DNA of 64,000 nucleotides. It comes from an uncultured Holophagae bacterium. GTDB taxonomy: Bacteria; Acidobacteriota; Thermoanaerobaculia; Thermoanaerobaculales; Sulfomarinibacteraceae. The position numbers and the translations under genes are program-made. The stretch is from the NCBI GenBank assembly GCA_963801995.1, contig CAWDGW010000017.1, positions 669,544-733,543 of the forward strand. Direction: 5' to 3'. Positions 13,056 through 34,002 of this stretch are shown in pieces (the stretch's first letter is position 1; each line of letters starts with the position of its first letter). Below the pieces are notes generated by a model. The model worked only from the letters and a program-made list of their open reading frames with translations, was not told where the DNA came from and did not search any database.

Positions 13056-13174
13056 AGCAGGCTGGGATCCCACACAGCGAATTCGCCCTCCTCCATTGGC
13101 ACAGCGACGACTCTTCGGCGTGAGTTATCATCAAGAGTCGGGGAATCCTGACGAACGAACCGGGAGGCGTACTC

Positions 13175-14499: not shown

Positions 14500-14500
14500 G

Positions 14501-16992: not shown

Positions 16993-19900
16993 ATGGGCCT
17001 GACACCCGATGATGTGCTGAGGGCCCGCGCGGCCTTCGACGAAAACGCCGCGGAGATTCTCCGCTTGGCGGTCGAACGCGGCCTCATATCGCCCACCGAG
17101 GCCGACACAGCCATCACCCACGCCCATGTGGAGGTCACCCAGACCGCCGACGGCACTCCGCCCCCGGTGGTCGAGGTGCTCGCCCACAGCGGCGTCTTGG
17201 ACCCGAGCACTCTGGCTGGCCTGGCTCGGGAACTTGGACTGCCCGACGACCACGCATCCACATGGGCGGGAATGGAAAACGCCGCCTTTCCCGACTCTTT
17301 CGACGTACCGCCGGTCAAGGACTGGGACCGCTACGAGATCGTGGACTTCATCGGCCGCGGCGGCATGGGCGACGTCTTCAAGGCACGTGACCCTCGGCTG
17401 GGGCGCTTTGTCGCCCTCAAGTTCCTCCGTCGCGACACTCCGGAGATCGTCCACCGATTCCTCCGTGAGGCCCGGGTTCAGGCAAGGATCGACCACGACA
17501 ACGTGTGCCAGGTCTACGAGGTCGGCGAGGTCGATGGCCACCCCTACATCGCCATGCAGTACATCGCCGGCGGCTCCCTCAAGGAAATCAGCGATCTGCT
17601 GACCATCCCCGAGAAGGCCAGAATCATGGTGGATGTGGCGGACGCCCTCCACGCAGCCCACCAGGCCGGCTTGATTCACCGCGACATCAAGCCCGCCAAC
17701 ATTCTGGTAGAGCGGCTTTCCGAAGGCGGCTGGCGGCCGTACGTTGTGGACTTCGGCATTGCCCGCGAAGCCGAAGGTCGCGACGTCACCATCTCCGGAA
17801 TGGTCCTGGGCACCCCTGCCTTCGCGGCGCCGGAGCAGGTACGGGGCGAGATCGACAGGCTCGACCGTCGAACCGATGTCTACAGCCTCGGAGCCACCAT
17901 GTACTGGTTCCTCACCGACCGGGCGCCCTACGAGGGGGGTTACCCGGAGGTCCTGGCCGGAATCACCGATCGCGAGCCTGTTCCTCCTCACCGGATCAAG
18001 CCCGAAATCGCGGTGGACCTCGAGACCGTCACCCTGAAATGCCTCGAAAAGGAGCAGGACCGGCGCTACCCAACAGCCCGCGCCGTGTCGGAGGATCTGC
18101 GGAGATTTCTCTCGGGGGAACCGATCACCGCCCGACCCACAACTCTGTTCTACAAGCTCGGCAAGAAGGTCCGGAAATACAAGGGATTGACGGCGATCGG
18201 CCTCGCGGTGCTGGTCGCCTTCGCCTTTGTGGTGGGTTATGCCCTTCGTTCGAACCTCATGGCTCGACGCCAGGCGGCGATCGCCCAGCACCTGCTCGTC
18301 CAGGCCAACGAGATCGACAACCTGGCGCGGATCACAGCCATGATGCCGCTCCACGATCGGCGCCAGGAAGAGACCCGAATCAACCGACGAATGCGGGAGA
18401 TCGAGGAGGAGACTGCCCGGCTGGGGCGGCTCGCCTTTGGGCCCGGTCACTACGCCCTTGGCCGGGGTTACCTCGCTCTCCAACGCTACGAGCAAGCTCT
18501 GGAGCACCTCCAGCTCGCCGAAGAGTCGGGCTATGACAACCCGGCTGTTTCCTACGCCACGGGGATGGTGCTCGGCAGGCTCTACGAGGCACAGCTCCAA
18601 CGGGCGAGCCAGCTTGACGACGAAGCGTTGCGCAACGCCTTCCGCCGTTCCATCGAGGCCGAGTACCGCGAGCCGGCTCTCGCATACCTCCGAGCGAGCG
18701 AGACCTCTCAGCCGGAGGCCGCGGCCTATGCCGAGGGCCTGATCGCCTTTTACGAACGCCGGTACGACGAGGCTCTGGCCAAGGCTCGGTCCGCTTTCGA
18801 CGAGGCCGACTGGCTCCATGAGGCCAAAAAGCTCGAAGGCGATATCTATCTCACCCTGGCGACTGAAAACCGCTTCCGCGGCGAGTACGATCAGGCGCTC
18901 GCCGAGCTCGAGATGTCCGGAAAGGCGTACTTCGCCGCGTTTGACATCGCTCGGTCGGACGCGACCATCCTGGACGGCGAGTGCACCCGCTGGATCGAGG
19001 TCCTCGAGACCGAGGCCGCCCGCGGTGACCCCGCCCGCTCGACCTTTGATCAGGCTCTGGCCGCCTGCGATCGATCGCTGCTGGTCAACCCGGATCGGTC
19101 GGCTGCCCACGAGCAGCTGTCATGGCTCCACTGGCGGTGGGCCGACCTGGTCAACGATCGGGGCGACGACCCGTCCGATTTCCTCGACCGGGCCATCGAG
19201 TACGCCCGGCGAGCCATCCAGATCGACCCGGACAGCGCGTCGGCCCACCACAAGCTCGGCGGTGCCATGCTGGTGGCCGGAGTTCACGAAATGGGCCAGG
19301 GTCACGACCCGCGTTCCACCCTGGAGCGTGCAGTGGCGAGCCTGCAGGCAGCGGCCAAGGCCGATCCCAGCATGGTTCCAGCCCACGACGACCTGGGTTA
19401 CGCCTGGGAGAGGATCGCCCGCTATGAGCTGAGCGCCGGCCTCGACCCCCGCTCCGCCCTCGACAACGCAATCGCCAGCTTTGACCGGGCGATCAACATC
19501 AATCCCGAGTACGCCAACCCTTACAACAACAAAGGGATCGCCCTGTGGCGGAGGGGCTACTACGAGCTCAAAACCGGACTCGATCCCGAGCAATCGCTCG
19601 ACCAGGCCCTCGACGCCCTGTCCGCCGCCACAACAATCAATCCCAACTACGCCTACGCCTACGCCAACCGCGGCCTGACCTACCGCACCAAGGCCCTTCA
19701 CCTCCTCGAGCTGGACGAGAACCCCACACCCTGGCTCGACCAGGCGAGGGTCAACTACGACAAGGCGCTGACCATCAAACCCGGAATTTTCTGGGGCTAC
19801 CCGGAGCAGGCCTCGGTGGAGTTGCTGTCCGCCCGGTGGGCCATGCGTCAGGGCCGCTCGCCCGAGCCCTTCTTCGAGGCCGCGGCCAGGGCGGCCCAAC

Positions 19901-20244
19901 GCGGCCTCGACGTCAATCCCCAGAACGCGGCGGCCTACCAGACGGCGGCCAAGGCCCACCGCTGGCGAGCCGAATGGCTCCGTTCCATGCGTCGAGACCC
20001 CAATCCCGACATCACCGCGGGCCTCCGACTGATTCGTACGGCGCTCCAGCTGAACCCCGCCCTCGCCAATGCCCTGATGACTGAAGCCGCACTTCTGATC
20101 CTCCAGGCCGAAGCATCCGACTCCCCTACCGAGCGCCAGAATCTGGTTCGGTCCGCCACCCGGTCGCTGGATCGAGCCATCGAAATCAATCCGGTCCTCG
20201 AACGCGAAGCCCGCCAACTCCGAGAGCGTGCGGAGCTGATCTAG
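16993..20244 (+). CDS. Ser/Thr protein kinase with one TM segment and a long C-terminal TPR region
   Basis: Has the kinase motifs GRGGMGDVFKA, HRDIKPANILV, DFGIA and GTPAFAAPEQ, then TM LTAIGLAVLVAFAFVVGYAL, then about 650 aa of TPR-like repeats (AxxNRGLxY, NPxYAxAY). Confidence 0.9.
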   Translation: MGLTPDDVLRARAAFDENAAEILRLAVERGLISPTEADTAITHAHVEVTQTADGTPPPVVEVLAHSGVLDPSTLAGLARELGLPDDHASTWAGMENAAFPDSFDVPPVKDWDRYEIVDFIGRGGMGDVFKARDPRLGRFVALKFLRRDTPEIVHRFLREARVQARIDHDNVCQVYEVGEVDGHPYIAMQYIAGGSLKEISDLLTIPEKARIMVDVADALHAAHQAGLIHRDIKPANILVERLSEGGWRPYVVDFGIAREAEGRDVTISGMVLGTPAFAAPEQVRGEIDRLDRRTDVYSLGATMYWFLTDRAPYEGGYPEVLAGITDREPVPPHRIKPEIAVDLETVTLKCLEKEQDRRYPTARAVSEDLRRFLSGEPITARPTTLFYKLGKKVRKYKGLTAIGLAVLVAFAFVVGYALRSNLMARRQAAIAQHLLVQANEIDNLARITAMMPLHDRRQEETRINRRMREIEEETARLGRLAFGPGHYALGRGYLALQRYEQALEHLQLAEESGYDNPAVSYATGMVLGRLYEAQLQRASQLDDEALRNAFRRSIEAEYREPALAYLRASETSQPEAAAYAEGLIAFYERRYDEALAKARSAFDEADWLHEAKKLEGDIYLTLATENRFRGEYDQALAELEMSGKAYFAAFDIARSDATILDGECTRWIEVLETEAARGDPARSTFDQALAACDRSLLVNPDRSAAHEQLSWLHWRWADLVNDRGDDPSDFLDRAIEYARRAIQIDPDSASAHHKLGGAMLVAGVHEMGQGHDPRSTLERAVASLQAAAKADPSMVPAHDDLGYAWERIARYELSAGLDPRSALDNAIASFDRAININPEYANPYNNKGIALWRRGYYELKTGLDPEQSLDQALDALSAATTINPNYAYAYANRGLTYRTKALHLLELDENPTPWLDQARVNYDKALTIKPGIFWGYPEQASVELLSARWAMRQGRSPEPFFEAAARAAQRGLDVNPQNAAAYQTAAKAHRWRAEWLRSMRRDPNPDITAGLRLIRTALQLNPALANALMTEAALLILQAEASDSPTERQNLVRSATRSLDRAIEINPVLEREARQLRERAELI

Positions 20245-22337: not shown

Positions 22338-22643
22338 TTACAGGGGGCACACGTCGCCCGGGCAGTCGTCCTCGAACGGGCAACTTTCGTACGGGCAGTT
22401 GGCCTTCCTGAGGGTCTTCCTGGCCCGCTCCCAGTCTACCGGCATGGCGGCGCTTTGCTGGCGCTGCCCTACGGCACCCCGAATCTCATCCACGTGGCGC
22501 AGGTAGTGCTCCACTGCGCGTTGGACGATTTCCGAGCGGGTCACGCTGAACCGACTGGCGGCGTCAGCGACCCAACCGGCAGTCTCGTCTGAAAGTTCGG
22601 TATAAAACTCGACCACGGCATCCCCTTTTGTGTTCATTGGCAT
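22338..22643 (-). CDS. ribbon-helix-helix (CopG/Arc-like) protein with Cys-rich C-terminal tail
   Basis: VVEFYTELSDETAGWVADAASRFSVTRSEIVQRAVEHYL follows the beta-strand/helix/helix pattern of RHH proteins. The tail is CPYESCPFEDDCPGDVCPL. The start is uncertain (ATG 22643 or 22637); a perfect TATAAT overlaps 22643, so the mRNA may be leaderless from 22637. Confidence 0.55.
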   Translation of the reverse strand: MPMNTKGDAVVEFYTELSDETAGWVADAASRFSVTRSEIVQRAVEHYLRHVDEIRGAVGQRQQSAAMPVDWERARKTLRKANCPYESCPFEDDCPGDVCPL

Positions 22644-22712: not shown

Positions 22713-22789
22713 TGGCGGGGCTAGCAGGACTCGAACCTGCGACCAATGGTTTAGGAAACCACTGCTCTATCCACCTGAGCTATAGCCCC
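22713..22789 (-). tRNA. tRNA-Arg (anticodon CCU), CCA encoded
   Basis: The minus strand reads GGGGCTA TA GCTC AGGTGGATA GAGC A GTGGT TTCCTAA ACCAT TGGTC GCAGG TTCGAGT CCTGC TAGCCCC G CCA. This folds into a full cloverleaf with a 7-bp acceptor stem, U33, anticodon CCT and a purine at position 37. Confidence 0.85.
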
Positions 22790-22842
22790 GCACGGGGAGT
22801 CCGATGCTAAGCCGATGGCTTCTGGCTGTCAATCGCGGGCCG

Positions 22843-22908
22843 GTGCCGTGAGGCGGGATGGGCCGCAGAAGAACGCGGTTTAGGAATTGGGCGCAGATCG
22901 ACGCAGTT
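22843..22908 (+). other. copy A of a ~65-nt post-tag element (..GTGCCGTGAGGCGGGATGGGCCGCAGAAGAACGCGG..GCGCAGATCGACGCAG)
   Basis: About 85% identical by eye to 26350-26414. It starts with GTG CCG TGA, resembling the V-P-stop end of the tagged genes. A weaker third copy lies at 24166-24230. Confidence 0.6.
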
Positions 22909-22922
22909 CAACAGCCCCAGCA

Positions 22923-23004
22923 CCAGGGCCGACACATTTGGCGGTTGGTGGGTGGTTCAAAACCATCTTGACTCGGCACGAAGGGTCAACAGTGTCGGCC
23001 CTGG
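22923..23004. repeat. 13-bp perfect inverted repeat CCAGGGCCGACAC / GTGTCGGCCCTGG with 56-nt spacer
   Basis: Read directly. The spacer contains two smaller hairpins (GGTGGTT-caaa-AACCATC and TTGAC-N12-GTCAA). It may be a structured RNA or terminator next to the tRNA. Confidence 0.6.
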
Positions 23005-23056
23005 CACCGATATCGGCGCTTTTTCTGCCTCCGCACATTATCCGCATGTTTTCCTC

Positions 23057-23085
23057 ATGACAATCTCGTTTCTGAGACCTATATT
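23057..23085 (+). promoter_or_regulatory. putative sigma70-type promoter
   Basis: ATGACA-N17-TATATT, 40 nt upstream of ATG 23125. Confidence 0.4.
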
Positions 23086-23124
23086 GTGACCAACTGTTCA
23101 GATCTACAGAACGGGGGGAGAGTC

Positions 23125-24174
23125 ATGAGCCGCCCGATGCCGTTGGCCTGGTGGCCGCCGTTTGCTGTCGTATGTCTGGGTGTCCTTGCGCCGCCAGCGG
23201 GCGCGCAGGTGTGTCCGGAATTGGTGGGCGTCTTGCCGGGAGCTATCGGTGTCGTCACAGCGTCGGGTGACTACGCATACCTTTGTGGTGACTGCTATTC
23301 AAACGGCGGTGACCTTCATATTGCCGACGTCTCACATCCCTCGGTGCCGGAGGTCGTCGGCCAGTTCGAGATGCCGGAGCTTGATATTCACCAGATCGCC
23401 GTGCAGGACGGTTACGCTTACGTCGTAGGCACGGAGTTTTCGAGTGGGAGTCTTCGTGTGATCGACGTAGCCGATCCGCGCGCCCCCGTGGAGGTGGGGC
23501 GCTTCGACGTCCCGGACGCTTCGGCCACAGCGGTCTCGGTGTCTGGCGCCAACGCGTATGTCGGGTACTTTATCCCGGGTGGATTCCCGTTCCGAGTTCT
23601 CGACGTGAGTGATCCACAGCATCCCATGGAGGTGGGAACGGCTCCTACGCATTGGGTTTACGACGTGGCAGTGGCGGACCACTACGCGTACGTCTCATCA
23701 GGCGATATTTTTCTTTCTTACCTTCAGGTGATCGACGTGAGCGATCCATCCGCACCGGTAGTGTTGGTCACGGTTTTATACTTCGGCGGCCAAATCGCGG
23801 TTGACAACAGCTATTTGTACGCAGCTGGGGGCTCCGGCCTTCGGGTCATCGACGTGAGCGATCCGTCCAACCCGGTCGAGGTCGGCTTTGTCGACTTGCC
23901 GGACGGCGCTGGGGACGTCGCGGTATCGTCCGGCTTCGCCTACGTCACCGACTACCCCGCTGGCCTTCGGGTCATCGACGTGAGTCATCCAACCGCACCC
24001 GTGGAGGTCGGTTTTTTCGACACAGACGGCCTCGCCACAGGTGTCTCGGTTTCAGATGGCTACGTATTTGTTGCGGATGGCAATGGCGGCCTGAAGATCT
24101 TCCGAGAGTGTGGTGTGTTCTTGGACGGTTTCGAGTCCGGCGACACAGCGGAGTGGTCGGCGGTGGTGCCGTAG
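23125..24174 (+). CDS. secreted LVIVD-repeat beta-propeller protein carrying the C-terminal GDTxxWSxxVP tag
   Basis: Signal-like MSRPMPLAWWPPFAVVCLGVLAPPAGAQ. Has about 7 repeats of the L(R/Q)V(I/L)DVSDPxxPVEVG type. Ends ...FLDGFESGDTAEWSAVVP*. Confidence 0.8.
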   Translation: MSRPMPLAWWPPFAVVCLGVLAPPAGAQVCPELVGVLPGAIGVVTASGDYAYLCGDCYSNGGDLHIADVSHPSVPEVVGQFEMPELDIHQIAVQDGYAYVVGTEFSSGSLRVIDVADPRAPVEVGRFDVPDASATAVSVSGANAYVGYFIPGGFPFRVLDVSDPQHPMEVGTAPTHWVYDVAVADHYAYVSSGDIFLSYLQVIDVSDPSAPVVLVTVLYFGGQIAVDNSYLYAAGGSGLRVIDVSDPSNPVEVGFVDLPDGAGDVAVSSGFAYVTDYPAGLRVIDVSHPTAPVEVGFFDTDGLATGVSVSDGYVFVADGNGGLKIFRECGVFLDGFESGDTAEWSAVVP

Positions 24175-24285
24175 AACGGATAGGCCGCGGATGAACGCAG
24201 ATCAGGCGCAATGAGGCGCAGTCAAAAAAACGATCTGGCGAACCGGCCGTATCCACAGTGAAGGTGTTCAGCCGGGGGAGGTGCC

Positions 24286-25445
24286 GTGATGTTCCGTGTC
24301 GCCGCGATATTGGTGACGGTGCTCTGTGGGCTCCAGCCCACAGCCGCTTTGACTCAGGTGCAGTGGCAGGTGGTCGTCAGCGATGGTTTGGGTGACAACG
24401 ACAACGGCGACGCCGGAGCGATGTCGGTTTTTCAGCAGCAGCTGTACATCGGGACGGCCAACTTCACCGATGGAGCCGAGCTCTGGCGCAGCCCGGACGG
24501 GACGAGCTGGGACCAGGTCAACAACGACGGCTTCGGTGACGGCGGCAATCACGCCGTGTACGCCATGGCGGTCTTCGACGGCCAGCTCTATGCGGCGACC
24601 TATCAGGGGAATATCGCCACAGGGACCGGGGTCGAGATCTGGCGTGCCGCCGACGGCTCGTCGTGGGAGCAGAGCAACAGTGACGGATTCGGGGACTCCA
24701 CCAACGCGGGCGCACTTGCGATGGCGGTTTTCGGGGGCGACCTCTACGTGGGAACCTTCAAATTCTCCACCGGGGGCTGCGAAATGTGGCGAAGCGACGA
24801 TGGAACCAACTGGACCCAGGTGAACTCCGACGGCTTCGGCGATCTCAGCAACCAGGGTGTGTTCTCCATGGCGGTCTTCGATGGCCAACTCTACGCCGGC
24901 ACCTACAAGGACAGCGGCGGCGGCGGCGAGGTGTGGCGTCCCCGGACGGCACCGCCTGGACCCAGGTCAACTCCGACGGCTTCGGAAATACCGCAGACAG
25001 GGGCATCTACTCCATGGCGGTGTTTGACGGTCAGCTGTACGCAGGAACCGGTCTCGGCGAGATCTGGCGGACCGACAACGGCACCGATTGGCAGCAGGTC
25101 GTCGGCGACGGGTTCGGCAACGACCGAAACTGGGCGATGGATTCCTTGGCTGTATACCGCGGGGAACTTTTAGCCGGCACGTACAACAGCCTGACCGGGA
25201 CCGAGGTCTGGCGAAGCGCCGACGGCTCAATATGGGAACAGGCCAACAGCGACGGATTCGGTCACGCCTGGAATTGTTCATCATCGTCGGTCGCGATCTT
25301 TGCCGAGCAGCTGCACATCGGGACCTACACCTGCGATCCCATGTTCCCTGCGCCGCCGTTCCAGGTATGGCGGACGAACAACCACATTTTCGAGGACGGC
25401 TTCGAGTCCGGCGACACCTCGGCGTGGTCGGCGGTGGTGCCGTAG
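24286..25445 (+). CDS. secreted repeat protein (~48-aa W-x-QVN-x-DGFGD / MAVFDGQLYAGT repeats), tagged; one 1-nt frameshift near 24940
   Basis: Signal-like MMFRVAAILVTVLCGLQPTAALTQ. The repeats continue seamlessly from ORF 24286-25173 into ORF 24786-25445 (..GGGGEVWR / SPDGTAWTQVNSDGFG..). Ends ..FEDGFESGDTSAWSAVVP*. Confidence 0.75.
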
Positions 25446-25454
25446 GCACGTTTC

Positions 25455-25493
25455 GAGCTTCGGGATTCGGGGTTCGGGGCTCGGGGTTTGGAG
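25455..25493. repeat. 7-bp array GAGCTTC GGGATTC GGGGTTC GGGGCTC GGGGTTT (G-quadruplex-capable)
   Basis: Lies 10 nt after the stop at 25445. Four G3-4 runs are separated by 3-4 nt. Confidence 0.9.
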
Positions 25494-25587
25494 CCACGTA
25501 CCTTGACAGCCCCTGAGTCGAGCACCAGATTCCGAGATGACGGCTCTGTTATTCAGACTGGCCATGTTCTGGAGTCGATCATGAAGA

Positions 25588-26286
25588 ATGCGACGACGCC
25601 TCTCGGATTTCGATCACCCCCTGATCACGAAAAGGCTGAACGAGCTGACCACGGACGACAAATCGGAATGGGGAAACATCGAGGCCTTATTCGATTTCGT
25701 CCGTGATGGCATCCCCTTCGCCTTCCCGATGAAGTTCAGCGACTGGGACGTTGTCAGAGCTTCTGACGTTGTCACATCAGGCTTTGGCTACTGCAACACC
25801 AAGGCGACGTTGCTCGTGGCACTGTGCAGGGCATCTGGAATCCCTGCGCGGGTGCACTACGGCTTGATTGACGTCCGAATCATGAGGGGAATCTTCCCCT
25901 CCTTCGCATTTCCATTTCTGCCGGCATCGGGGCCCCATTCCTGGACCGAGGTGGAAATCGACGGGCAGTGGAAATCGGTCGACTCCTACATCAATGACGA
26001 GACTCTTTTTCGTGCTTCGCGCCGCCGGCTCCAAAGTATGGAGCAGTCTCTCGGTTACTCACTCGCATGCGCGGACGGCAGGTGCAGCTGCGAGTTCAAT
26101 TTCGGCGACCGAGGTTTCGTCCATATGGGAGCAGTCGTCGAAGACCACGGCGTCTGGGATGACGCTTCACAGTACTTTGAGTCCGAAAAATACGTGAGGT
26201 TCAGCGCTATCCAGCGCCTGTTCTATCCCGTGATTGCCGTTGTCAGCAACCGAAATATCAGGCGACTCAGGGCCTCCCTCGGCTGA
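25588..26286 (+). CDS. transglutaminase-like cysteine protease-fold protein (no signal peptide seen)
   Basis: GFGYCNTKATLLVALCRASGIPARVHYG (catalytic Cys block), then HSWTEVEIDGQWKSVDS (His/Asp block). Confidence 0.7.
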   Translation: MRRRLSDFDHPLITKRLNELTTDDKSEWGNIEALFDFVRDGIPFAFPMKFSDWDVVRASDVVTSGFGYCNTKATLLVALCRASGIPARVHYGLIDVRIMRGIFPSFAFPFLPASGPHSWTEVEIDGQWKSVDSYINDETLFRASRRRLQSMEQSLGYSLACADGRCSCEFNFGDRGFVHMGAVVEDHGVWDDASQYFESEKYVRFSAIQRLFYPVIAVVSNRNIRRLRASLG

Positions 26287-26310
26287 CGGCCCCTTGCCCC
26301 TCGATCAACC

Positions 26311-26414
26311 GAGAATCTCATCCGCCGACACCTCGGCGTGGTCGGTGACGATGCCGGAGGCCGGGATGGTCCGCAGAAGAACGCGGGTCAGAAATTGGAC
26401 GCAGATGAACGCAG
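26311..26414 (+). other. out-of-frame remnant of the tag-coding 3' module plus copy B of the post-tag element
   Basis: 26321-26359 tccgccgacacctcggcgtggtcggtgacgatgccggag translates (+1 relative to the upstream gene) as SADTSAWSVTMPE. Compare ggcgacacctcggcgtggtcggcggtggtgccgtag (GDTSAWSAVVP*) at 25411-25445. The stop has become GAG. It is followed by the element shared with 22843-22908. Confidence 0.7.
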
Positions 26415-26591
26415 CCCACAGGAATAGGCACCACCTATCCCGTTCTTTCGATCGTTTGCATCGAGGAAATTTCGCAACTGTGAGATACGTGGCACCGCTA
26501 TTCCAATTTCTATATTGATTATAGTGATTATATTGCTTGGTATGGTACTATTGTTTTTGGAGATACCTTGAGCCCACCAAGCGACAAACCC

Positions 26592-26747
26592 ATGCTCACC
26601 TTCGTGATCGATAGGGACCTATTGGATCGGGTCGACGATTACAGGTACGAGAACCGGTTTCCTACCCGGGCGGGGGCGATCAGGTGGCTGCTGGAGTGGG
26701 CGCTGAAACAAACCCCACCGTCCGACAAACACCGGCGGAGCAAATAG
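26592..26747 (+). CDS. small ribbon-helix-helix-like protein (51 aa; below the ORF-track size cut-off)
   Basis: MLTFVIDRDLLDRVDDYRYENRFPTRAGAIRWLLEWALKQ.. shows an N-terminal beta-strand followed by two helices, as in CopG/antitoxin-like proteins. It follows an unusually AT-rich stretch (26495-26560) with direct repeats TGATTATA/GTGATTATATTG. The antisense ORF 26619-26867 is rejected. Confidence 0.45.
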   Translation: MLTFVIDRDLLDRVDDYRYENRFPTRAGAIRWLLEWALKQTPPSDKHRRSK

Positions 26748-26763
26748 CAGGAGGACCCGCGGC

Positions 26764-26967
26764 ATGGCATCCAAGTGGAAGAACCGCAAGCTCGTCTCCA
26801 ACCTGGACCCGATGGTGTACGAAAAGGACCGCGCCGGATTCATGCGCGGTCTGCGTGAGATCGACATGGCGGCCCGGCTCGGCTACGACACCCGCAACTC
26901 CTACCTCATCGTCGAGAACGACCGTGTGGTGGGCATCGGCGGCTGCGGTCCTGGAGCCAGGCGCTAA
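26764..26967 (+). CDS. small hypothetical protein (67 aa), apparently coupled to the RHH gene
   Basis: AGGAGGA lies 7 nt before ATG 26764, and the gene starts 17 nt after the upstream stop. No motif recognised. Confidence 0.4.
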   Translation: MASKWKNRKLVSNLDPMVYEKDRAGFMRGLREIDMAARLGYDTRNSYLIVENDRVVGIGGCGPGARR

Positions 26968-27101
26968 CTCAGCCGCCCACCCGCACGAAATCCGCACAAA
27001 ATCAGAAGATTTTCGTCACGACTCTTTGTCGACCACCACCCATGTTGTTTGAAGGATGCAGATGACAGAGGTCTTGCTTTCACAACAGGAAGGAGGCGAC
27101 G

Positions 27102-28226
27102 ATGGCACAAGCACACGGGACTCAATGCCGCCATTCGACCAGGTACCTGGTGGTGACCTCATTCCTTGTACTGTCCCTCGTTGGTCCTCGGCTCACCGCC
27201 GAGTCTCCGACCGGCACGGAAACTGCCGCCCGCTGGGCCTACGGGCCCACGACCGCGGTGGCCGTTGTTGACCAGTACGCGTACTTCGGCAGCGGCTGTG
27301 TGCTGCTGGTCGCCCATATCTCCGATTCAGCAGAGCTGGAGATCGTGGCCGAGATCGCCCTGCCCGGAGTCGTGCGGGGCATCGACGTGGTCAATGGCTA
27401 TGCGTACGTGGCCAACGGGAGGTCCGGCCTTCGAATCCTCGACGTCAGGACTCCAACGACTCCGGTGGAGATCGGCGTCGCGTTGGACCCGAGGGATGCC
27501 TATGGCGTCGAAGTGTCCGGCCGCCACGCCCTGGTTGCGGATTTCCGGGGAGGACTCTGGATCATCGACGTCGCCATACCATCCTCCCCTATCGCGGTTG
27601 GATTATCGGCCGAACCTGCAAACCCGGTTGACGTGGTGGTGTGGGGAGATCACGCCTTCGTCGCGGACATGTGGGACGGACTTCGAGTCATCGACTATTC
27701 CGACCCCTCATCGCCTTTCGAAATTGGGCAATTCGACACTCCCGGGATCGCCATCGGTGTGGCGGCCACTGGTCGCCACGTTTACGTGGCCGACTACCAC
27801 GGGGGTCTGCAGGTCGTGGACGTGAGCCAGCCAGAGAAACCGAATCTCGCCGGCCGAGTCGACACACCGGGCGCCGCCAAGGGTCTCTGGATCTGCGAGG
27901 ATCTGGCACTCGTCGCGGACGACGCTGCGGGGCTTCTTGTCATGGATGTGAGGTCGCCCGCCTCGCCCCTCGTCACCGGATTCCACTCAACGCCCGGATT
28001 TGCATCGGGTGTTTCGAGCGATGGACAAACCGCTTTTGTCGCCGACGGTTGGGCCGGCCTTCGGTTGATTGACATCAGGCCGCCGGCCTCCCCTCTCGAG
28101 GTTGCGGCGTACATCAGCCCGACACGTTCAGCCCCGTCGCGACACTGCGGCGGATATGGGTCTGTCGAAGAAACGCCCTCCGGGATCGAGATCTTCAGAG
28201 ACTGTGATCACGACAGCCGGCAGTAA
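27102..28226 (+). CDS. secreted LVIVD-repeat beta-propeller protein (untagged paralog type)
   Basis: GGAAGGAGG RBS. Repeats of the type LRILDVRTPTTPVEIG, LWIIDVAIPSSPIAVG, LRVIDYSDPSSPFEIG and LQVVDVSQPEKPNLAG. Ends ..EIFRDCDHDSRQ* without the tag. Confidence 0.8.
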   Translation: MAQAHGTQCRHSTRYLVVTSFLVLSLVGPRLTAESPTGTETAARWAYGPTTAVAVVDQYAYFGSGCVLLVAHISDSAELEIVAEIALPGVVRGIDVVNGYAYVANGRSGLRILDVRTPTTPVEIGVALDPRDAYGVEVSGRHALVADFRGGLWIIDVAIPSSPIAVGLSAEPANPVDVVVWGDHAFVADMWDGLRVIDYSDPSSPFEIGQFDTPGIAIGVAATGRHVYVADYHGGLQVVDVSQPEKPNLAGRVDTPGAAKGLWICEDLALVADDAAGLLVMDVRSPASPLVTGFHSTPGFASGVSSDGQTAFVADGWAGLRLIDIRPPASPLEVAAYISPTRSAPSRHCGGYGSVEETPSGIEIFRDCDHDSRQ

Positions 28227-28273
28227 CGGTCAGTGGACTCGGCGGTGCGAGGCGTCGTTGAGTTTTCGGAGTC

Positions 28274-28308
28274 GGTTTCCGAATTCCGAATTCCGAATTC
28301 CGAATTTT
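28274..28308. repeat. 7-bp array GGTTTCC (GAATTCC)x3 GAATTTT, an inverted copy of the (GAATTCG)n element
   Basis: Lies between convergent genes. The reverse complement reads AAAATTC(GGAATTC)x3 GGAAACC, matching 7509-7549 and 36414-36454. Confidence 0.9.
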
Positions 28309-28318
28309 GCCCGACTGC

Positions 28319-29696
28319 CTACGGCACCGAGGCCGACCACTGGCCGGTATCCCCGGTCTCGAAGGAGTCCGAGAAAAGGTGGGGACTCGTGACGGTCAGG
28401 CCCTTGATGCAGAAGTTGGCCGTGTCGTCGTCGAACCAGAGATCCTGCCAGACCCCGCCGCCATCGCGGTAGAAGCTCTGATCGGGATCGGCCGATGACT
28501 CCACCAAGGTGCGGCTCTCGGCTCCGAGCAGTACCGGGACGATGGAGGTCCGATCAAAGGGCTGGCCACCCTGGGACAGGCTCAGATACAAGAAAAAGTC
28601 GTCGCCCGTTTGGAGGTTCACCGGAACGTCCAGGTCAACGGTGTAGAATCCCTTCTCGGTCAAGGATCCACTGGTTGTCGAAAGGGGATCGGCCAGGGCG
28701 CCGGCTTCGAAACGATCGTAGACCGTAACCGTGTAATCCACCTGCTCGGCGGCCGTGAAGAAGCTGACTGCCGTCAACAGCTCATCCATGACCGCGGTGA
28801 AGGCGTTGAAGGCTTCGTCCGCATCCAACTTGGTGTCCCGCCATCCGTGGTAGTCGTGGTAATACACGCCTTCGTACCTGAGCGGTTCCACGTCCTGGAA
28901 GGACACCGCCCCCATCTCGGGGTGCTGACAGCTGTACTTGTCGTAGTACGAAATCCAGAAGTAGCCGTCGTGCCCCCACCATTCTCCCCAGCTGTTCTTC
29001 ACCAGCCAGGCGCCCGGTTGCGGGGCTTGAGTGTTGTGATTGATCGTCCCAGCCGACGATGGAAACCGCATGGTTGGGCTCCATGGGCTCGGACGGTGGC
29101 TGGTAGTGGTTGTAATTCCAGTCAATGAACTGACCGGCGTAGGCCATGCAGGTGCCGACCACGCCGTGGTTCATCACCGCCGTCTTGATGGTCTCGATCT
29201 CGCTGAGATCCACCTCGGCCACGTACCAGGCGATGTGGCGCGGATAGTAATAGTGGTAACTGGGATCGCTGCGCAGCGGTGGCGTGTCGTAGCTTTGCCC
29301 GTCCACGTCCCGCACCGCCCCCTCCAGACGGGAGAGGTACGCCGATGTCACCAGGTAGTCGCCGCCGTTGTGAACTTCCAACCCGCCGCCAGTGGGTGGG
29401 TCCGTATCGTCGTTGTTGTGCTGATTGAATCCGTTCCACCAATCCAGGTGGTACTCGGCCAGGTTGGGCTCGCCCTGCTCTCCTGCCGCCGCCCAGGCAC
29501 CGGTCATCAGCAGATTCCCCTCCATGGAGGCCATGGCTCCGTGAGTCCAGCAGGTCCCACCCTGTTGTGACTTGACCGAGGTCACATAGTTGGTCCCGCC
29601 AACGTCGCGAAGATCAAAACTCGCCGGGAGCTGCGCGTGGGCGACGGCGGCAGTCACAAAAACGATGGCGAACACAACGGCGTACTTTTTGGACAT
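28319..29696 (-). CDS. secreted papain-family (C1) cysteine peptidase, tagged; one 1-nt frameshift near 29045
   Basis: Signal [21 protein letters not shown]. Has the catalytic blocks [11 protein letters not shown] (Gln/Cys), [11 protein letters not shown] (His) and [19 protein letters not shown] (Asn/Trp); the last block is in the second ORF (28319-29125). Ends ..[18 protein letters not shown]. Confidence 0.8.
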
Positions 29697-29881
29697 CCGA
29701 AGCCTCCAAGACTGGTACCGATGGCACCAAATCCGGCACCGGTTTACATTCTAGCAAGTTGTTGGTGATACGTTTTCTCAAAATTTGAAAAACACCCGAG
29801 GGGAGTGAATCTCCCCACGATGACCGCTGAAAAGAACGATCGGGAGAGTGGCGAGTGCTGAGCCCCCCGTCTCGGTGCGGT

Positions 29882-31471
29882 ATGCTCGCCCCGATGAGAG
29901 CGGTATTACTCACTGTTGTCGAACGTTCGGTGGTGGTCGTCCTGGCCCTGTTGGTCGCAGGTGGCATCGCCCAACATGTCATGGCTGATTCTGACGGCGA
30001 TTCCAGCCCGGATCTCGCGATCCTCGATCGATCGCCAGGCGATGGCAAGGTATCGCCTTGGGTTGCAGATGCCGTGGCCCTCGGAGGCACCACCGAGCTG
30101 CTCGTGGTTCTGTCCGACCAGGCCGACCTCGAGTCACTCCAGACCGGAGAGGCTTTGTCGGCGCGCCGACATCTGGTGCGAAACGCCTTGTGGGACACGG
30201 CCCAGGCCAGCCAGCGCCAGTTGAGGCTTTGGTTGACCGACAGGGGCATATCCCATCGGCCTTTCTACATCGTCAACGCGATTCTGGTGTCCGGGGCCGA
30301 CAGCGCCCTGGTGGGCGAGCTGGCGACCCGTCCCGACGTGGCGAGGATCGCGGCGAATCCACGGGTGCGGCAGATCCTCCCGGTGCCCAAAGCCCCTCCG
30401 GTGACCGAGTTCGGCGAGGCGATCGAATGGAATGTCTTGCAGATCAGGGCAGACGAAATGTGGGCCAAGGGCATCACCGGCCAGGACATCGTCGTCGGCA
30501 ATCAGGACACCGGCTTCGACTGGGAGCATCCCGCCCTGGTGCAGCAGTATCGAGGATGGGATGGGTCGGCGGCGAACCACGATTACAACTGGCACGACTC
30601 CATCCACACTGGCGGCGGTGCCTGCGGGCCCGACTCGCCGGCGCCTTGTGACGACCACGGCCACGGCACCCTCACCACGGGGGTTGTGGTGGGCGACGAC
30701 GGCGGCGCCAACCAGATTGGAGTCGCGCCCGGCGCGCGCTGGATCGGCTGCCGCAACATGGACCAGGGCGTCGGAACTCCCGCCACCTACCTCGAGTGCC
30801 TGGAGTTCTTCCTCGCTCCCTACCCGGTGGGCGGCACCCCGGCCCAGGGCGACCCCGACCGAGCGCCCCATGTCACCAACAACTCCTGGACGTGCCCGCC
30901 TTCCGAGGGCTGCGACTGGGACACCCTGCAGGCCGCGTTCGAAGCGCAGCGAGCCGCCGGCATCATGACGGTGGTGGCGGCCGGCAATTCGGGCTCGTCC
31001 TGCTCGTCGGTGGATATTCCGCCGGCGATCTACGACGCGGTGTACTCCGTCGGCTCCATTAACCTCTTCGGCGAGATTTCCAGCTTTAGCGCCCGCGGCC
31101 CCGTGATGGTCGACGGCAGCGGCCGGCTCAAGCCTGACATCTCGGCGCCCGGTGAGGACGTCCGTTCGAGCGCCGCCGGAGGCGGTTACGAATCGGCGTC
31201 CGGAACCTCACTGGCCTCCCCCCACGTGGCCGGAGCAGTGGCCCTGCTGTGGTCGGCGTCGCCGTCGTTGATCGGGAGGATCGACGCCACCGAGGCCATC
31301 TTCAACATCACCGCCGAGGGCTGGACGAGCGATCAGTGCGGCGATCCGGCCGACGCCGTGCCCAACAACGTGTACGGATGGGGGGTGCTCGACGCACTCG
31401 CCGCCTACGAGGTCTTCGACGACGGCTTCGAGTCCGGCAACGCCTATTTCTGGTCGGCCATCGTCCCGTAG
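29882..31471 (+). CDS. secreted subtilisin-family (S8) serine peptidase with N-terminal propeptide, tagged
   Basis: Catalytic triad blocks VGNQDTGFD (Asp), HGHGTLTTG (His) and SGTSLASPHVAG (Ser), with NNSW for the oxyanion Asn. Ends ..FDDGFESGNAYFWSAIVP*. The start is uncertain (GTG 29855, ATG 29882 or ATG 29894). Confidence 0.85.
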   Translation: MLAPMRAVLLTVVERSVVVVLALLVAGGIAQHVMADSDGDSSPDLAILDRSPGDGKVSPWVADAVALGGTTELLVVLSDQADLESLQTGEALSARRHLVRNALWDTAQASQRQLRLWLTDRGISHRPFYIVNAILVSGADSALVGELATRPDVARIAANPRVRQILPVPKAPPVTEFGEAIEWNVLQIRADEMWAKGITGQDIVVGNQDTGFDWEHPALVQQYRGWDGSAANHDYNWHDSIHTGGGACGPDSPAPCDDHGHGTLTTGVVVGDDGGANQIGVAPGARWIGCRNMDQGVGTPATYLECLEFFLAPYPVGGTPAQGDPDRAPHVTNNSWTCPPSEGCDWDTLQAAFEAQRAAGIMTVVAAGNSGSSCSSVDIPPAIYDAVYSVGSINLFGEISSFSARGPVMVDGSGRLKPDISAPGEDVRSSAAGGGYESASGTSLASPHVAGAVALLWSASPSLIGRIDATEAIFNITAEGWTSDQCGDPADAVPNNVYGWGVLDALAAYEVFDDGFESGNAYFWSAIVP

Positions 31472-31495
31472 ACTGCATATCTCACCGCCGGTCCA

Positions 31496-31524
31496 TTGAC
31501 ATCGCTCTCTCCGGGGAACATATT
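31496..31524 (+). promoter_or_regulatory. putative sigma70-type promoter
   Basis: TTGACA-N17-CATATT, about 30 nt before ATG 31555 (RBS CTGGAGG). Confidence 0.4.
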
Positions 31525-31554
31525 GGCAACTAGAACCCCCGACTGGAGGCCAAT

Positions 31555-32493
31555 ATGCGTGCAGTCGTCCTCGTCCTCGTGATGGTGTGGCTCTCGCCGC
31601 CCGGACTGTGGGCACAGAACATCTTCGCAGACGGTTTCGAAACCGGCGATGTGTGGAGGTGGACCGACAGCGTTGGGTTCAGCTGTAGTGACGAATGCAA
31701 CCTCGTTTCACAAGTAGGATGTGTGCCCACCGAAAAGTGCACCTTTTTCGGGGCCTCAAATCCGGATCGGGGCTGTGCGCGGTGTGTGGATGACGGCGAC
31801 GTAGGATGGGGAGGTGCCTGTGCCTTCGATCCGACCACCGGGATCGACGACTGCGTGGCAGGCCTCTATTGTCATGAAGGGACCTGCAAGGAGTTCTGTT
31901 CGTGGCCGCCGGAAACCTGTCCTGATCCTGAAGGGTGTTTCGGCATAGCGCTCACCTTTGACGGCCTATTCGTCGGGCTGTGCGTCCCACAGTGCGATCT
32001 CTTCGCCCAGGACTGCAGCCCCGACAAGGGGTGCTACATCATGCTCGGCAGGGATTCCTACCCGAGTTTTTGCTACGTGCCCGAGCCCGAGCCCGATCCG
32101 CCGGACGGCTGCGGCATCGGCCTCGACCGCCCGGGGATCCAAGGAGAGTGCTGCTCTTACATCAATACCTGCCAACCCGAATACGGGTGCAACCAACTCA
32201 ACGGGCCGGATTTCGATCACATGGTGTGCGCCAGAAACTGCGATCCCACCGGCACCCTTGGCTCGGACGACTGCGTGCAGGTTCTCGGATCAACCTTCTG
32301 GTGCATGTCGATCAACGCGTACTACGCAAACCTGGATGAACTGCCCGACGCCTATGGTTTCTGCATCGACTGGACGATCTGGGGTCCGCCCGAGTGCTAC
32401 AACGGTGTCCAGGACGCACACGAGGACGGCATCGACTGCTGCGTGGAGCCCGGAGGGGATCCGGACTGCCCCTGCGTATACGAGTGCCTTTGA
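31555..32493 (+). CDS. secreted cysteine-rich protein (~34 Cys in 312 aa) with the tag-like motif at the mature N-terminus
   Basis: Signal MRAVVLVLVMVWLSPPGLWAQ followed directly by NIFADGFETGDVWRWTDSVG. The rest is Cys-rich, and the C-terminal ECYNGVQDAHEDGIDCCVEPGGDPDCPC resembles Cys-knot-type repeats. Confidence 0.7.
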   Translation: MRAVVLVLVMVWLSPPGLWAQNIFADGFETGDVWRWTDSVGFSCSDECNLVSQVGCVPTEKCTFFGASNPDRGCARCVDDGDVGWGGACAFDPTTGIDDCVAGLYCHEGTCKEFCSWPPETCPDPEGCFGIALTFDGLFVGLCVPQCDLFAQDCSPDKGCYIMLGRDSYPSFCYVPEPEPDPPDGCGIGLDRPGIQGECCSYINTCQPEYGCNQLNGPDFDHMVCARNCDPTGTLGSDDCVQVLGSTFWCMSINAYYANLDELPDAYGFCIDWTIWGPPECYNGVQDAHEDGIDCCVEPGGDPDCPCVYECL

Positions 32494-32553
32494 CCAGCTC
32501 TCTTGCCGGAGGTGCAGGTTTCTGCATAAGGCTGATCCTCAGATTTGAAACCC

Positions 32554-32583
32554 TTGACTACATGTAGACATCGCAGTTAGTAT
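32554..32583 (+). promoter_or_regulatory. putative promoter with embedded 10-bp palindrome
   Basis: TTGACT (32554-32559), 18-nt spacer, TAGTAT (32578-32583). The perfect palindrome CTACATGTAG (32558-32567) overlaps the -35 and spacer and may be an autoregulatory operator for the RHH protein. Confidence 0.4.
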
Positions 32584-32605: not shown

Positions 32606-32794
32606 TTGCGAATTCAACCGAAAACAGATACGGCTAACGATGATCAGAAAGTGTTCAGCGTCAGGATCGACCCCATTCTGATCCGCAAGCTCAAGGTCCA
32701 TGCCGTCCTCGTGGACCGCTCCATCAGATCAGTGGTCACCGAAGCCTTCGACGAGTACCTCGCTCTTCATAAGGACGAGGCCGAAAAGCTCTAG
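32606..32794 (+). CDS. ribbon-helix-helix (CopG/ParG-like) DNA-binding protein
   Basis: TTG start 5 nt after AGGAGGA. KVFSVRIDPILIRKLKVHAVLVDRSIRSVVTEAFDEYL shows the RHH pattern. Confidence 0.55.
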   Translation: MRIQPKTDTANDDQKVFSVRIDPILIRKLKVHAVLVDRSIRSVVTEAFDEYLALHKDEAEKL

Positions 32795-34002
32795 CGCGAC
32801 CGATCGGTCGTGCTCATCGCTCGAAAAACTCCCCACCCACCACCCTCCCCCGCTTTTCGAGTTTTCCTGATTTTCGATTTTCGATTTTTGATTTTCGATT
32901 TTTGACTATCGTGGGGTTCGGGCACGGCAGGACCGTCGACCCAGAAGACCCCCGGCAATCGCAGCAGAAACTGAAGGAGCGCCTGGTCCACGTTGGGCAC
33001 CCACAACGGCACCCCCCGTCGATGGGCGTCGGCGGCGAGACGCTCAACCAGAAGACCTGCCGGGCGTCCGGCGCCTGCCACGCTCGCGCACCAACCCGGG
33101 ACGCGCAGCGCCGACCCTGCCTCGGCTCCGGTCGAGAGTACGTCCTCCACCCACCCTTCTTCTCCGCTGGGATCCACCAGCCGCCAGGAGAAACCTTGCG
33201 CTGTAGGTCCACCCGGTGTCGCCAGCCAGCCGATTCCAGTGTGCCCCCATGCCTCGGTCGGTGCCCACGCTCCCACCTGCCGCCCGGTGGGCAGCTCCCA
33301 GACCGAGGCGGGAAAACCTGTCTGTGAGGTCTCTGACTGAGTTGTCTCGACCTTCGCCAAAGCCGTCATGGCCACGGCCGCCGCTCCGCAGTGCCCCTCC
33401 CAGGGTCCGCAGAAGACCGCCGTGACGCCCTCCGAGGCCGCTTCTTCGCGGTCGGTCACACCAGCCCAGGTACGATGGATGTCATCAATGTGGGCGACCG
33501 GCAGCAACACCGCCGGCCACGGCAGAACCACCGGCAGAGCGCCCAACTCGACTGCCAATTCGGCCAGGAGGGTCGCCATCCGTCCCTCCCCCACCTGGCA
33601 CCTCCAGAAGGCCCGATTCTTCCAGGTCACCGCGATCAGGCGTTGTTCCGGGGCCGATACCAGGTCCGCGATCCAGGGATCCAACGGCGGTGTCACCCCC
33701 TGGCACACCTCTGCGGCTGCACGGAAGGCACACCCGGCGTCCACCGTGGACGGTGGCAGCCACAGGGCACCTCCGATTCCCAACCGAATCGCCTGAACCA
33801 GAGCGGCGTCGGTGCGAACGGCAATCACCGCCCGGGCGCGTTCCGCTGGAGGGCTCGCTGCCGCTTCCCGCACCCAGGCCCCTTGGGAGTCTTCAACCGC
33901 CACCCACGCCGGCTCATCGGCACCCATGGCCACTGCTTGTTCGATGACCGAACGGATGGCTTTGTTGGACCCCCCGACCTCGGTTCCGATGAGATTGATC
34001 AT
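32791..34002 (-). CDS. hypothetical protein (403 aa), last gene of the surE-pcm operon
   Basis: ATG overlaps the acyP stop (ATGA). No motif recognised. The last ~35 codons run through the GATTTTC array (translated [15 protein letters not shown]). Confidence 0.5.
32852..32906. repeat. 7-bp array (GCTTTTC GAGTTTT CCT GATTTTC GATTTTC GATTTTT GATTTTC GATTTTT GAC)
   Basis: Read directly. It lies inside the 3' end of the minus-strand ORF, about 60 nt after the plus-strand RHH stop. Confidence 0.9.

Follow-up and report, generated by a model that had tools for sequence, protein, structure and literature searches.

The 64,000-nt stretch analysed here, referred to as the window, belongs to an uncultured Holophagae bacterium (contig CAWDGW010000017.1) and carries at 22.8-32.5 kb, beside a tRNA-Arg(CCU) gene, a cluster of genes for secreted or accessory proteins, several of which share an 18-residue C-terminal tail, here termed the tag. 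We put at roughly 60% the probability that this cluster is a native array in which genes for Sec-exported proteins are transcribed separately and mostly end in the tag as an address label, and in which cassettes turn over between strains; we are less confident of any specific mechanism for the tail. Each gene was found to behave as a cassette, with a promoter/signal-peptide module of its own at one end and, at the other, the tag DNA together with an element behind it (the post-tag element); in the one close relative the array is different, with breakpoints at cassette ends. The tail itself, a flexible linear motif, is carried by many unrelated secreted proteins, set at a fixed distance from their C-terminus.

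The tag comprises the last 18 residues of the protein, F-x-D-G-F-E-S-G-D-T-S-A-W-S-x-x-V-P-stop, written in short as F-x-DGFESGDTSAWS-x-x-VP; in its general form the first position is hydrophobic (hydrophobic-x-DGFESGDTSAWS-x-x-V-P-COOH). A six-frame scan of the window revealed eight copies of the motif, seven of which end exactly at a stop codon, and F, D, F, E, G, W, S, V and P are invariant in all seven of these tails. An earlier note on this DNA, made from the letters alone, had counted five cluster proteins with the motif at their end. Five carriers were indeed found, but only four of them carry it at the C-terminus; in the fifth, the Cys-rich protein, the core motif (IFADGFETGDVWRW, DNA positions 31621-31677) lies directly behind the signal peptide. 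Three further C-terminal copies were located on genes outside the cluster (motif matches at 52097, 58095 and 63819), and the tag therefore belongs to the genome and not to the cluster. It is a genome-wide and lineage-wide feature, which limits the reading of the region as a shuffled secretome locus that the earlier note had offered.

A scan of GTDB with the back-translated pattern, using one genome per species, returned at least 114 loci among the matches listed, and 96 of 114 were labelled Acidobacteriota, mostly Thermoanaerobaculia, Holophagae and Multivoradales. By this distribution the organism of the window also falls in Acidobacteriota, most probably in Thermoanaerobaculia. Among the exact-core matches in these listed loci the core stands exactly four residues (mostly xxVP) before the stop codon in 56 of 77 cases (73%), and the stop follows within eight residues in 68 of 77. 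The listed loci contain at least 110 tagged open reading frames (ORFs), S8 peptidases being the commonest (29/110). Carriers are mutually unrelated, falling into many clusters that include S8 and C1 peptidases and beta-helix, LVIVD, 48-aa-repeat and PQQ/DUF7619 proteins. Several tag loci come from one metagenome-assembled genome (e.g. MFD09964.bin.1.228), and clustering of tagged genes is seen in other genomes too, with three in each of L012, L022 and L026, for example. A HMMER scan of 1.84 billion representative proteins yielded 4,470 clusters (50% identity) matching the tag at E<=1e-3, and single matches covering the whole tag profile end at the last residue of the protein; this full scan was required, a word-indexed search with the tag profile having recovered 21 short fragments only. 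Among metagenome fragments DGFESGDTSAWS is nearly invariant. The tail had no match in Pfam or NCBIfam and a literature search for the motif strings found no paper containing them; it has thus not previously been modelled or described in these databases or in the literature searched. One listed locus, L001 (NCBI GCA_024449935.1, contig JAANSS012054370.1), has a tag-ending ORF beside a 1,783-aa S8/PQQ protein; the contig numbering of its assembly, above 12 million, suggests a very large metagenome-like or host-associated assembly with a relative of the lineage.

Pfam matches and ORF calls bore out the genes that had been proposed for the cluster (Table 1). Both LVIVD propellers pass the PF08309 gathering score and hence belong to the LVIVD propeller family. 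Against the choice-of-anchor B family (TIGR04312), whose name points to members with alternative C-terminal anchors, LVIVD-1 scored 66.2 bits (E 3e-18) and LVIVD-2 33.7 bits, both under the curated cutoff of 100 bits; the two resemble that family in being clear LVIVD proteins with alternative C-terminal anchors among their homologues, and differ from it in these scores and in that LVIVD-2, which ends in ...IFRDCDHDSRQ without the tag, has no anchor at all. The 48-aa-repeat protein showed weak Pfam matches to the propeller families DUF6242 and KIB1-4, and protein P0017 has a homologous C-terminus. The Cys-rich protein had no match in Pfam or NCBIfam. Two promoter-like sites, of LVIVD-1 and of the Cys-rich gene, had been cited before; both are present, each agreeing with the consensus at 10 of 12 positions. 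A promoter scan found five such sites against 2.3 +/- 1.3 in shuffled sequences, a modest excess, and all five lie immediately 5' of a gene (LVIVD-1, the Cys-rich gene, the tRNA gene and the middle and right ribbon-helix-helix (RHH) genes).

Variability was assessed against a single close relative, a 15.4-kb ENA contig designated L123, which was found by a search with LVIVD-1 and encodes an orthologue of it (P0084, 93% identical). BLASTN revealed four shared segments. L123 2929-4391 corresponds to window 22713-24175 at 95% identity (tRNA, spacer and LVIVD-1), the match ending one base past the stop codon; L123 9892-11051 repeats window 23015-24175, so that the LVIVD-1 cassette is present twice; L123 7832-8050 is the promoter and signal-peptide module (window 23001-23219, 83-96% identity) placed ahead of a different, 632-aa LVIVD gene; and L123 1-349 consists of the left RHH gene and the 3' 45 nt of the tRNA. 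The remaining L123 sequence differs from the window. Past LVIVD-1 it encodes a membrane protein, then two tagged proteins, namely a beta-helix protein of 503 aa and the 632-aa propeller, and finally the second copy of LVIVD-1 and an MqsA-like pair. Sliding-window identity to L123 was about 97% across the LVIVD-1 gene, 72-83% in the 57 tag-coding bases and random afterwards, which places the breakpoint at the tag. The earlier note's phrase, a recombination-shuffled secretome locus, thus receives direct support from one relative, in which other tagged genes are in place.

For the M28 peptidase flank no close relative was found in GTDB genomes, and JGI metagenomes gave only two short contigs (<1.6 kb); four longer contigs with 62-72% identical M28 orthologues have no shared neighbours on either side and are therefore uninformative on variability. 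L123 also carries, after or between its tagged genes, four copies (91-98% identical) of an 86-nt palindromic element with 33-nt arms and a 17-nt loop, which was not found in the window or in 122 other loci and looks like a miniature inverted-repeat transposable element or a repetitive extragenic palindrome (MITE- or REP-like).

Traces of cassette turnover were also identified in the window itself. The post-tag element (GGATGGKCCGCRGAWGAACGC…) occurs there in three copies, all confined to the cluster. Copy 1, beside the tRNA gene, carries at 22856 the motif GGATGGGCCGCAGAAGAACGC, one of three copies in the 64 kb, is kept in L123 and is a remnant of the 3' end of a tagged gene. Copy 3 follows an orphan piece of tag-coding DNA directly 3' of the transglutaminase gene: this remnant (26324-26344, GCCGACACCTCGGCGTGGTCG) differs from the tag DNA at a single position (chance expectation, 0 matches), its translation reads ...SSADTSAWSVTMPE... 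and its stop codon has been lost. The orphan tag remnant and the repeated post-tag elements fit past cassette loss. The 65-nt repeat had also been considered as a structured RNA; it had no Rfam match and folded no better than shuffled sequences, and it was reread as the post-tag 3' element. The hairpin at 22923-23004 is also present in L123, where the duplicated cassette starts at the equivalent of window 23001-23015.

Nucleotide sequences at the end of the tag are uniform. CCG-TAG terminates every C-terminal tag, seven in the window and four in L123, and TAG is the stop codon in only 7 of 32 untagged genes. This uniformity points to local spread or homogenisation of the tag-coding end; a TAG bias that is local and absent elsewhere indicates local shared ancestry or gene conversion and not a general rule. 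The TAG stop was also considered as a constraint on the tag and was rejected, as it holds in the window and L123 and not across other genomes; the codon choice of the tag is only mildly biased.

Homologous recombination between shared cassette ends would duplicate, replace or delete cassettes and would leave orphan tag ends, and the tag DNA and promoter/signal-peptide modules would permit such shuffling without a dedicated recombinase. The arrangement recalls chromosomal integrons, which share with it the row of single-gene units with conserved 3' elements, the replacement and duplication from strain to strain, the interspersed small regulator or antitoxin-like genes and the orphan cassette ends. 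Unlike an integron, the window lacks an IntI integrase; neither the post-tag element nor the L123 86-nt palindrome has GTTRRRY-type ends (no attC core sites); the units each have their own promoter and one of them, the C1 peptidase gene on the minus strand, is inverted; and exchange seems to use ordinary homology of the tag DNA and the promoter/signal-peptide module.

The tag was compared with the checklist of eight criteria for small C-terminal sorting signals given by Haft (10.1101/2023.06.07.544157). Six of the eight apply: C-terminal location, many copies per genome, invariant signature residues, signal peptides, unrelated carriers, and homologues that differ in their ends. The two features lacking are a transmembrane segment after the motif, the protein stopping four residues past it, and a basic cluster, the tails ending in xxVP without a cluster of Arg or Lys. 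The mean maximum Kyte-Doolittle hydrophobicity (10-residue window) of the last 30 aa was 0.95, which is not transmembrane-like. All five cluster carriers have a signal peptide, and an N-terminal hydrophobic region was detected in 14 of 25 M-starting tagged proteins, the remainder including truncated gene calls. Of 120 LVIVD homologues, at least 30 have the tag as their end, placed right behind ...FREC; others have at the same position the PF18962 tail of the type IX secretion system (T9SS), PEP-CTERM (P0308), other short tails, or none, the T9SS domain and PEP-CTERM being borne by homologues from other phyla.

LVIVD-1 was modelled with AlphaFold2 on the basis of an alignment of 27 sequences, which gave an all-beta propeller (pTM 0.83; pLDDT >90 for residues 30-330) with a helix at residues 11-21, corresponding to the hydrophobic region, and tag residues 332-349 at a pLDDT of about 42. 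The model leaves the tail unstructured, which indicates that it is a free linear motif and not part of the fold.

Two further kinds of tail were seen among LVIVD homologues of other origin, namely …[VI][YF]LP[LV]x[LTM][RK]xx in P0202, P0205, P0207, P0210, P0241, P0247, P0254, P0270, P0291 and P0304, and …CPG[YF]VP…PRRxSGRxxP in P0209, P0229 and P0286. Both are short, lack a transmembrane segment and occupy the position of the tag, and they may be further undescribed C-terminal signals.

We class the tag as working like a C-terminal sorting signal and not as a member of the sortase/exosortase-type families or a T9SS tail. With LPXTG/sortase, PEP-CTERM/exosortase, GlyGly-CTERM/rhombosortase and MYXO-CTERM/myxosortase (10.1101/2023.06.07.544157) it shares the location at the extreme C-terminus, many copies, near-invariant residues, unrelated carriers with Sec signals, homologues with a different signal and restriction to one lineage. 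It differs from them in having neither a transmembrane segment nor an Arg cluster, in that the motif itself is the end of the protein (…VP-COOH), in its occurrence behind a signal peptide or in tandem, and in having no known cognate enzyme. The T9SS domain (PF18962 / TIGR04183) is likewise a C-terminal, non-membrane signal on Sec-exported proteases and propellers and takes the same position in LVIVD homologues, but it is a folded domain of about 70-100 aa, whereas the tag has 18 residues that AlphaFold2 leaves unstructured. No PF18962 / TIGR04183 match was found on any tagged window protein. T9SS is a system of Bacteroidota/FCB, whereas the tag is mainly found in Acidobacteriota.

In the labelled-cassette reading the tail would, after Sec export, be read by a partner protein, which would direct passage across the outer membrane or attachment to, or retention on, the cell surface. 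Because the tail has neither a transmembrane helix nor a basic cluster, the mechanism would probably do without a membrane-embedded sortase-type enzyme, and the terminal Pro may shield the tail from carboxypeptidases. A more specific proposal, which we regard as possible but less likely than not, is that the tail is the address label of an undiscovered export or surface-attachment pathway of Thermoanaerobaculia and Holophagae and that the tag DNA and the 5' modules serve in addition as shuffling homology. Such a pathway would require no transmembrane segment and would be comparable in function to the T9SS C-terminal domain or the sortase-type signals, perhaps acting via strand docking into a jelly-roll receptor.

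Neighbours recurring beside tagged genes, among the matches listed, are Ser/Thr kinases of about 970 aa (9 loci) and extracytoplasmic function (ECF)-type sigma factors (6 loci), numbers too few to call either a conserved neighbour. Such kinases are likely numerous in these genomes and could stand near tagged genes by chance. The kinase and sigma factor loci fall within L005-L118 of the GTDB set (e.g. L011, L020 and L073), and the window has a kinase-TPR gene at 16993-20244, 3 kb left of the cluster. The transglutaminase-core protein was considered as a tag-processing enzyme and rejected; it has no signal peptide and no homologue near tags in the at least 114 GTDB loci listed.

Several observations weigh against the reading of the cluster as an array of address-labelled cassettes. 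The variability rests on a single 15-kb contig, and that contig has two 100% identical repeats and compensating indels, which suggests that it was assembled from long reads with imperfect accuracy; in genomes outside this lineage tags are followed by no preferred stop codon; and the cluster does not differ in composition from its flanks, which gives no hint of a foreign origin. No tag receptor, protease or transporter was identified, and no gene family was found consistently adjacent to tagged genes in the at least 114 GTDB loci listed. The core motif, moreover, is not strictly C-terminal, since it stands behind the signal peptide in the Cys-rich protein, L112 and L047 and occurs in tandem in P0029, P0030, P0039 and P0041. 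In its internal occurrences it is the first strand of repeated jelly-roll domains of about 200 aa that are PF14099-like; in P0023, P0025 and P0026 the internal copies start domains matching PF14099 from profile position 1. The motif may hence serve as a hairpin with a structural or binding role and not as a signal for transport.

These internal copies lead to a different explanation, that the tail is a structural or adhesive beta-hairpin derived from the first strands of PF14099-type jelly rolls, serving as a calcium- or glycan-binding cap, a linker or a donor strand docking into a partner, and that the clustering of the genes is ordinary paralogue expansion. An acidic D-x-x-E-x-x-D pattern, which would resemble metal-binding loops, agrees with it, as does the N-terminal or tandem placing of the motif. 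The core FxDGFESGDxSxW does equal the start of the repeated PF14099 (Polysacc_lyase, concanavalin-like jelly roll) domains, and FESG…W also recalls the starts of MAM/LamG-type domains, but in the tag the protein ends four residues later and no jelly roll can form from 18 residues, which the structural model leaves unfolded. The distance to the C-terminus is fixed in 73% of the 77 listed genomic matches, ending in xxVP, the tail takes the position held in homologues by T9SS and PEP-CTERM signals, and it has six of the eight properties on the sorting-signal checklist. On these grounds we consider the hairpin explanation rather unlikely. An internal motif that is the first jelly-roll strand does suggest that the tail may derive from such a strand and could act by strand docking.

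Since the cluster adjoins a tRNA gene and its gene content differs in a close relative, we also asked whether it could be a classical genomic island integrated at tRNA-Arg(CCU), the integrase having been lost later. The small RHH and Arc-like genes of phage-type families would fit an island, and the tRNA does serve as an att site in the lineage: L123 carries a perfect 45-nt direct repeat (305-349 and 2929-2973) that corresponds to the 3' portion of tRNA-Arg(CCU), anticodon loop to CCA, and brackets a 2.58-kb insert with genes for thioredoxin, peroxiredoxin, a DUF2237 protein and lipocalin and without an integrase. Such a repeat, placed on the 3' side, is the classic signature of att-type insertion. 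The insert lies between the tRNA and the left RHH gene, where the window has the empty site; the left RHH gene is the original 3' flank of the tRNA, being 88% identical at the nucleotide level in L123, where it stands beside the partial tRNA copy. Islands made by integrases lie on the 3' side of a tRNA, but the cluster starts at the 5' end of this minus-strand tRNA, the sole tRNA found in the 64-kb window by ARAGORN and Rfam, whose 3' end (22713) faces the left RHH gene. The hot spot suspected at the tRNA is thus real but concerns its other side, with other genes; tRNA-Arg marks a recombination-prone spot and not the integration site of this cluster.

As the earlier note had stated, no integrase-like ORF is present among the annotated ORFs at 16-37 kb. 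The repeats of the tRNA 3' end that it proposed to seek near 32.5 kb did not appear: across 10-45 kb no direct repeat derived from either end of the tRNA was found, k=11 matches were at chance level and the best matches to tRNA 3' segments had at least 9 mismatches over 25 nt and at least 16 over 40 nt. An anomalous composition was likewise sought and did not emerge. The GC content of the cluster is 61.4% against 63.1% in the rest of the window, its 5-kb z-scores are at most 0.9, and its tetranucleotide distance ranks 12th-15th of 109 blocks of equal size, which is within the range of the rest of the window; the most deviant composition is that of the kinase gene region at 16-23 kb. Like tRNA-linked islands, the locus combines tRNA adjacency, small phage-type regulators and an att-like 45-nt repeat in a relative, and its content differs after LVIVD-1 in the one close relative compared; it differs from them in lying on the wrong side, without an integrase and without an att repeat in the window, and in consisting of genes of the host lineage with native composition, the tag being a hallmark of that lineage that also occurs on genes 20-30 kb away. 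The 5'-side position, the absence of a repeat and of an integrase and the native composition together reject a conventional island, in agreement with the earlier note, and we consider an island very unlikely.

Assembly artefacts in repeat-rich DNA, mimicking variability and broken genes in a stable and ordinary set of secreted genes, were considered as well, and we judge this explanation very unlikely. Frame breaks in the window are confined to tagged or repetitive genes, two of them in the cluster: the 48-aa-repeat gene breaks near 24930, at a C4 run, and the C1 peptidase gene near 29030, at a GATC. These frameshifts may be assembly or sequencing errors or real decay. In L123 (3629-3653 and 3952-4271) LVIVD-1 copy A has compensating +1/-1 indels relative to the otherwise 100% identical copy B, which looks like the consensus error of long reads, and repeats of tag DNA could mislead assemblers. 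Non-repetitive genes such as that of the C1 peptidase are also broken, however, the orphan tag remnant and the post-tag elements lie in unique sequence, and the window and L123, which are independent assemblies, match at 95-97% over 1.46 kb, beyond which they have nothing in common for several kb of the same contig.

Sediments contain Thermoanaerobaculia and their relatives within Acidobacteriota in abundance, and a marine-sediment study proposes these bacteria as protein degraders with secreted peptidases (PMC8528874). The tail offers a direct handle on how secreted enzymes leave the cell or stay on it. It is found on thousands of secreted protein families while absent from Pfam and NCBIfam, and could be used to list the secretome of uncultured members, to seek its partner by phylogenetic profiling and in reporter fusions. 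Should the labelled-cassette reading hold, the catalogue of C-terminal sorting signals gains a class without a membrane anchor, and cassette turnover suggests a simple route to exoenzyme diversity at the strain level, by recombination at shared tag DNA.

Table 1. Features of the window and, where stated, of contig L123 (GC3, GC content at third codon positions)
Feature	Position	Strand	Details
tRNA-Arg(CCU)	22713-22789	-	CCA encoded; ARAGORN; Rfam RF00005, 68.9 bits
LVIVD seven-bladed propeller 1 (LVIVD-1)	23125-24174	+	PF08309 E 1e-43, 146 bits, 7 repeats; signal peptide; C-terminal tag
Tag DNA of LVIVD-1	24118-24174	+	
48-aa-repeat (propeller-like) protein	24286-25445	+	signal peptide; tag DNA 25389-25445; two frames
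Transglutaminase-core protein	25588-26286	+	PF01841 E 4.5e-16; without signal peptide or tag
67-aa ORF	26764-26967	+	directly 3' of middle RHH gene; GC3 0.85
LVIVD propeller 2 (LVIVD-2)	27102-28226	+	PF08309 E 1.6e-52, 175 bits, 6 repeats; signal peptide
C1 (papain-family) peptidase with Lectin_like domain	28319-29696	-	PF00112, PF18560; signal peptide; tag 28319-28375; two frames
S8 subtilase	29855-31471	+	PF00082 E 8e-39; N-terminal hydrophobic segment; tag 31415-31471
Cys-rich secreted protein	31555-32493	+	34 Cys in 312 aa; signal peptide
Left RHH (CopG/RHH-like) gene	22338-22643	-	GC3 0.75; weak MazE6 and CopG matches, E 0.14-0.32
Middle RHH repressor-like gene	26592-26747	+	phrog_4738 transcriptional repressor E 5.8e-9; NikR RHH domain E 0.006
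Right RHH (Arc-like) gene	32606-32794	+	phrog_582 Arc-like repressor E 2.5e-4
Promoter-like site (sigma-70-like) of tRNA-Arg	22832-22804	-	TTGACA-17-TAGCAT
Promoter-like site of LVIVD-1	23057-23085	+	ATGACA-17-TATATT
AT-rich patch with promoter-like site ahead of middle RHH gene	26489-26560	+	
Promoter-like site of Cys-rich gene	31496-31524	+	TTGACA-17-CATATT
Promoter-like site of right RHH gene	32554-32583	+	
Orphan post-tag element, copy 1	22846-22920	+	degenerate GTGCCGTGAGG where the tag's GTGCCGTAG would sit
Inverted repeat	22923-23004		28-nt arms; just upstream of 5' boundary of LVIVD-1 cassette
Post-tag element, copy 2	24175-24225	+	directly behind LVIVD-1 stop; motif at 24178
Orphan tag-coding remnant and post-tag element, copy 3	26318-26420	+	remnant 26324-26344; element at 26364
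Giant paralogue 1	46619-52141	+	1,840 aa, PQQ-propeller/DUF7619; intact; tag 52085-52141
Giant paralogue 2	52324-58139	+	split once; tag 58083-58139
Giant paralogue 3	58480-63863	+	split several times; tag 63807-63863
Heptamer arrays (1)	486, 1193, 1305, 6552, 7510, 9373, 10627, 13021, 22263		
Heptamer arrays (2)	25459, 28277, 32854, 36414, 41978, 52141, 58174, 58266, 63863		
86-nt palindromic element of L123	4427-4512, 7750-7835, 11052-11137, 12359-12444 (L123)		after or between tagged genes

Three small RHH genes had been proposed at the left edge, in the middle and at the right edge of the cluster. Matches to phage-type PHROGs support the middle gene (E 6e-9) and the right one (E 2.5e-4), while the left gene gave only weak matches (E 0.1-0.3); none of the three ORFs was matched by Pfam. 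The AT-rich patch noticed ahead of the middle RHH gene was confirmed: of all 66-nt segments in the 64 kb, the one that begins at 26499, inside the patch, has the lowest GC content (26%). The middle RHH gene and the 67-aa ORF form a possible two-gene module; this ORF had no match in family, PHROG or PADLOC searches, and none of the small ORFs of the cluster matched PADLOC defence models. A 403-aa ORF without a family match (32791-34002, minus strand) overlaps the right RHH gene by 4 nt. Its predicted C-terminal end crosses the heptamer array at 32854-32902, and its gene model and stop are uncertain.

The flanks of the cluster consist of housekeeping-type genes. To the left are genes for NiFe hydrogenase and its Hyp maturation proteins, a peroxiredoxin, a cyclophilin, the kinase-TPR protein and the M28 peptidase, and to the right genes for acylphosphatase, a DedA/VTT protein, SurE, PCMT, oxoacid:ferredoxin oxidoreductase, acetyl-CoA synthetase and AcrB. 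The hydrogenase cluster (2387-15526) is of the membrane-bound NiFe type, with Fer4 and NrfD-type subunits, a large subunit at 4779-6479 and HypA, HypB, HypC and HypE-like genes, and fits the uptake hydrogenases reported in marine Thermoanaerobaculia (PMC8528874). The three tagged genes outside the cluster are tandem paralogous units (46619-63863) of 5.8-6.0 kb each with 60-96% nucleotide identity, each encoding an approximately 1,800-aa protein that combines a PQQ-type propeller, CarboxypepD_reg, DUF7619 and the tag.

Tandem arrays of a 7-nt unit, with about 4.3 copies in about 30 nt and units such as AATTCGG, TTCGGGG, TTCCGAA and TTTTCGA, are scattered over the window. Nearly all are intergenic, often a few bases past a stop codon. 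Strict arrays of period 7 numbered 11, whereas periods 5, 8 and 9 gave none, nor did shuffled sequences, and the arrays are about 20 times denser in the window than in 960 kb of other Thermoanaerobaculia loci. They recall the short tandemly repeated repetitive (STRR) heptamers of cyanobacteria.

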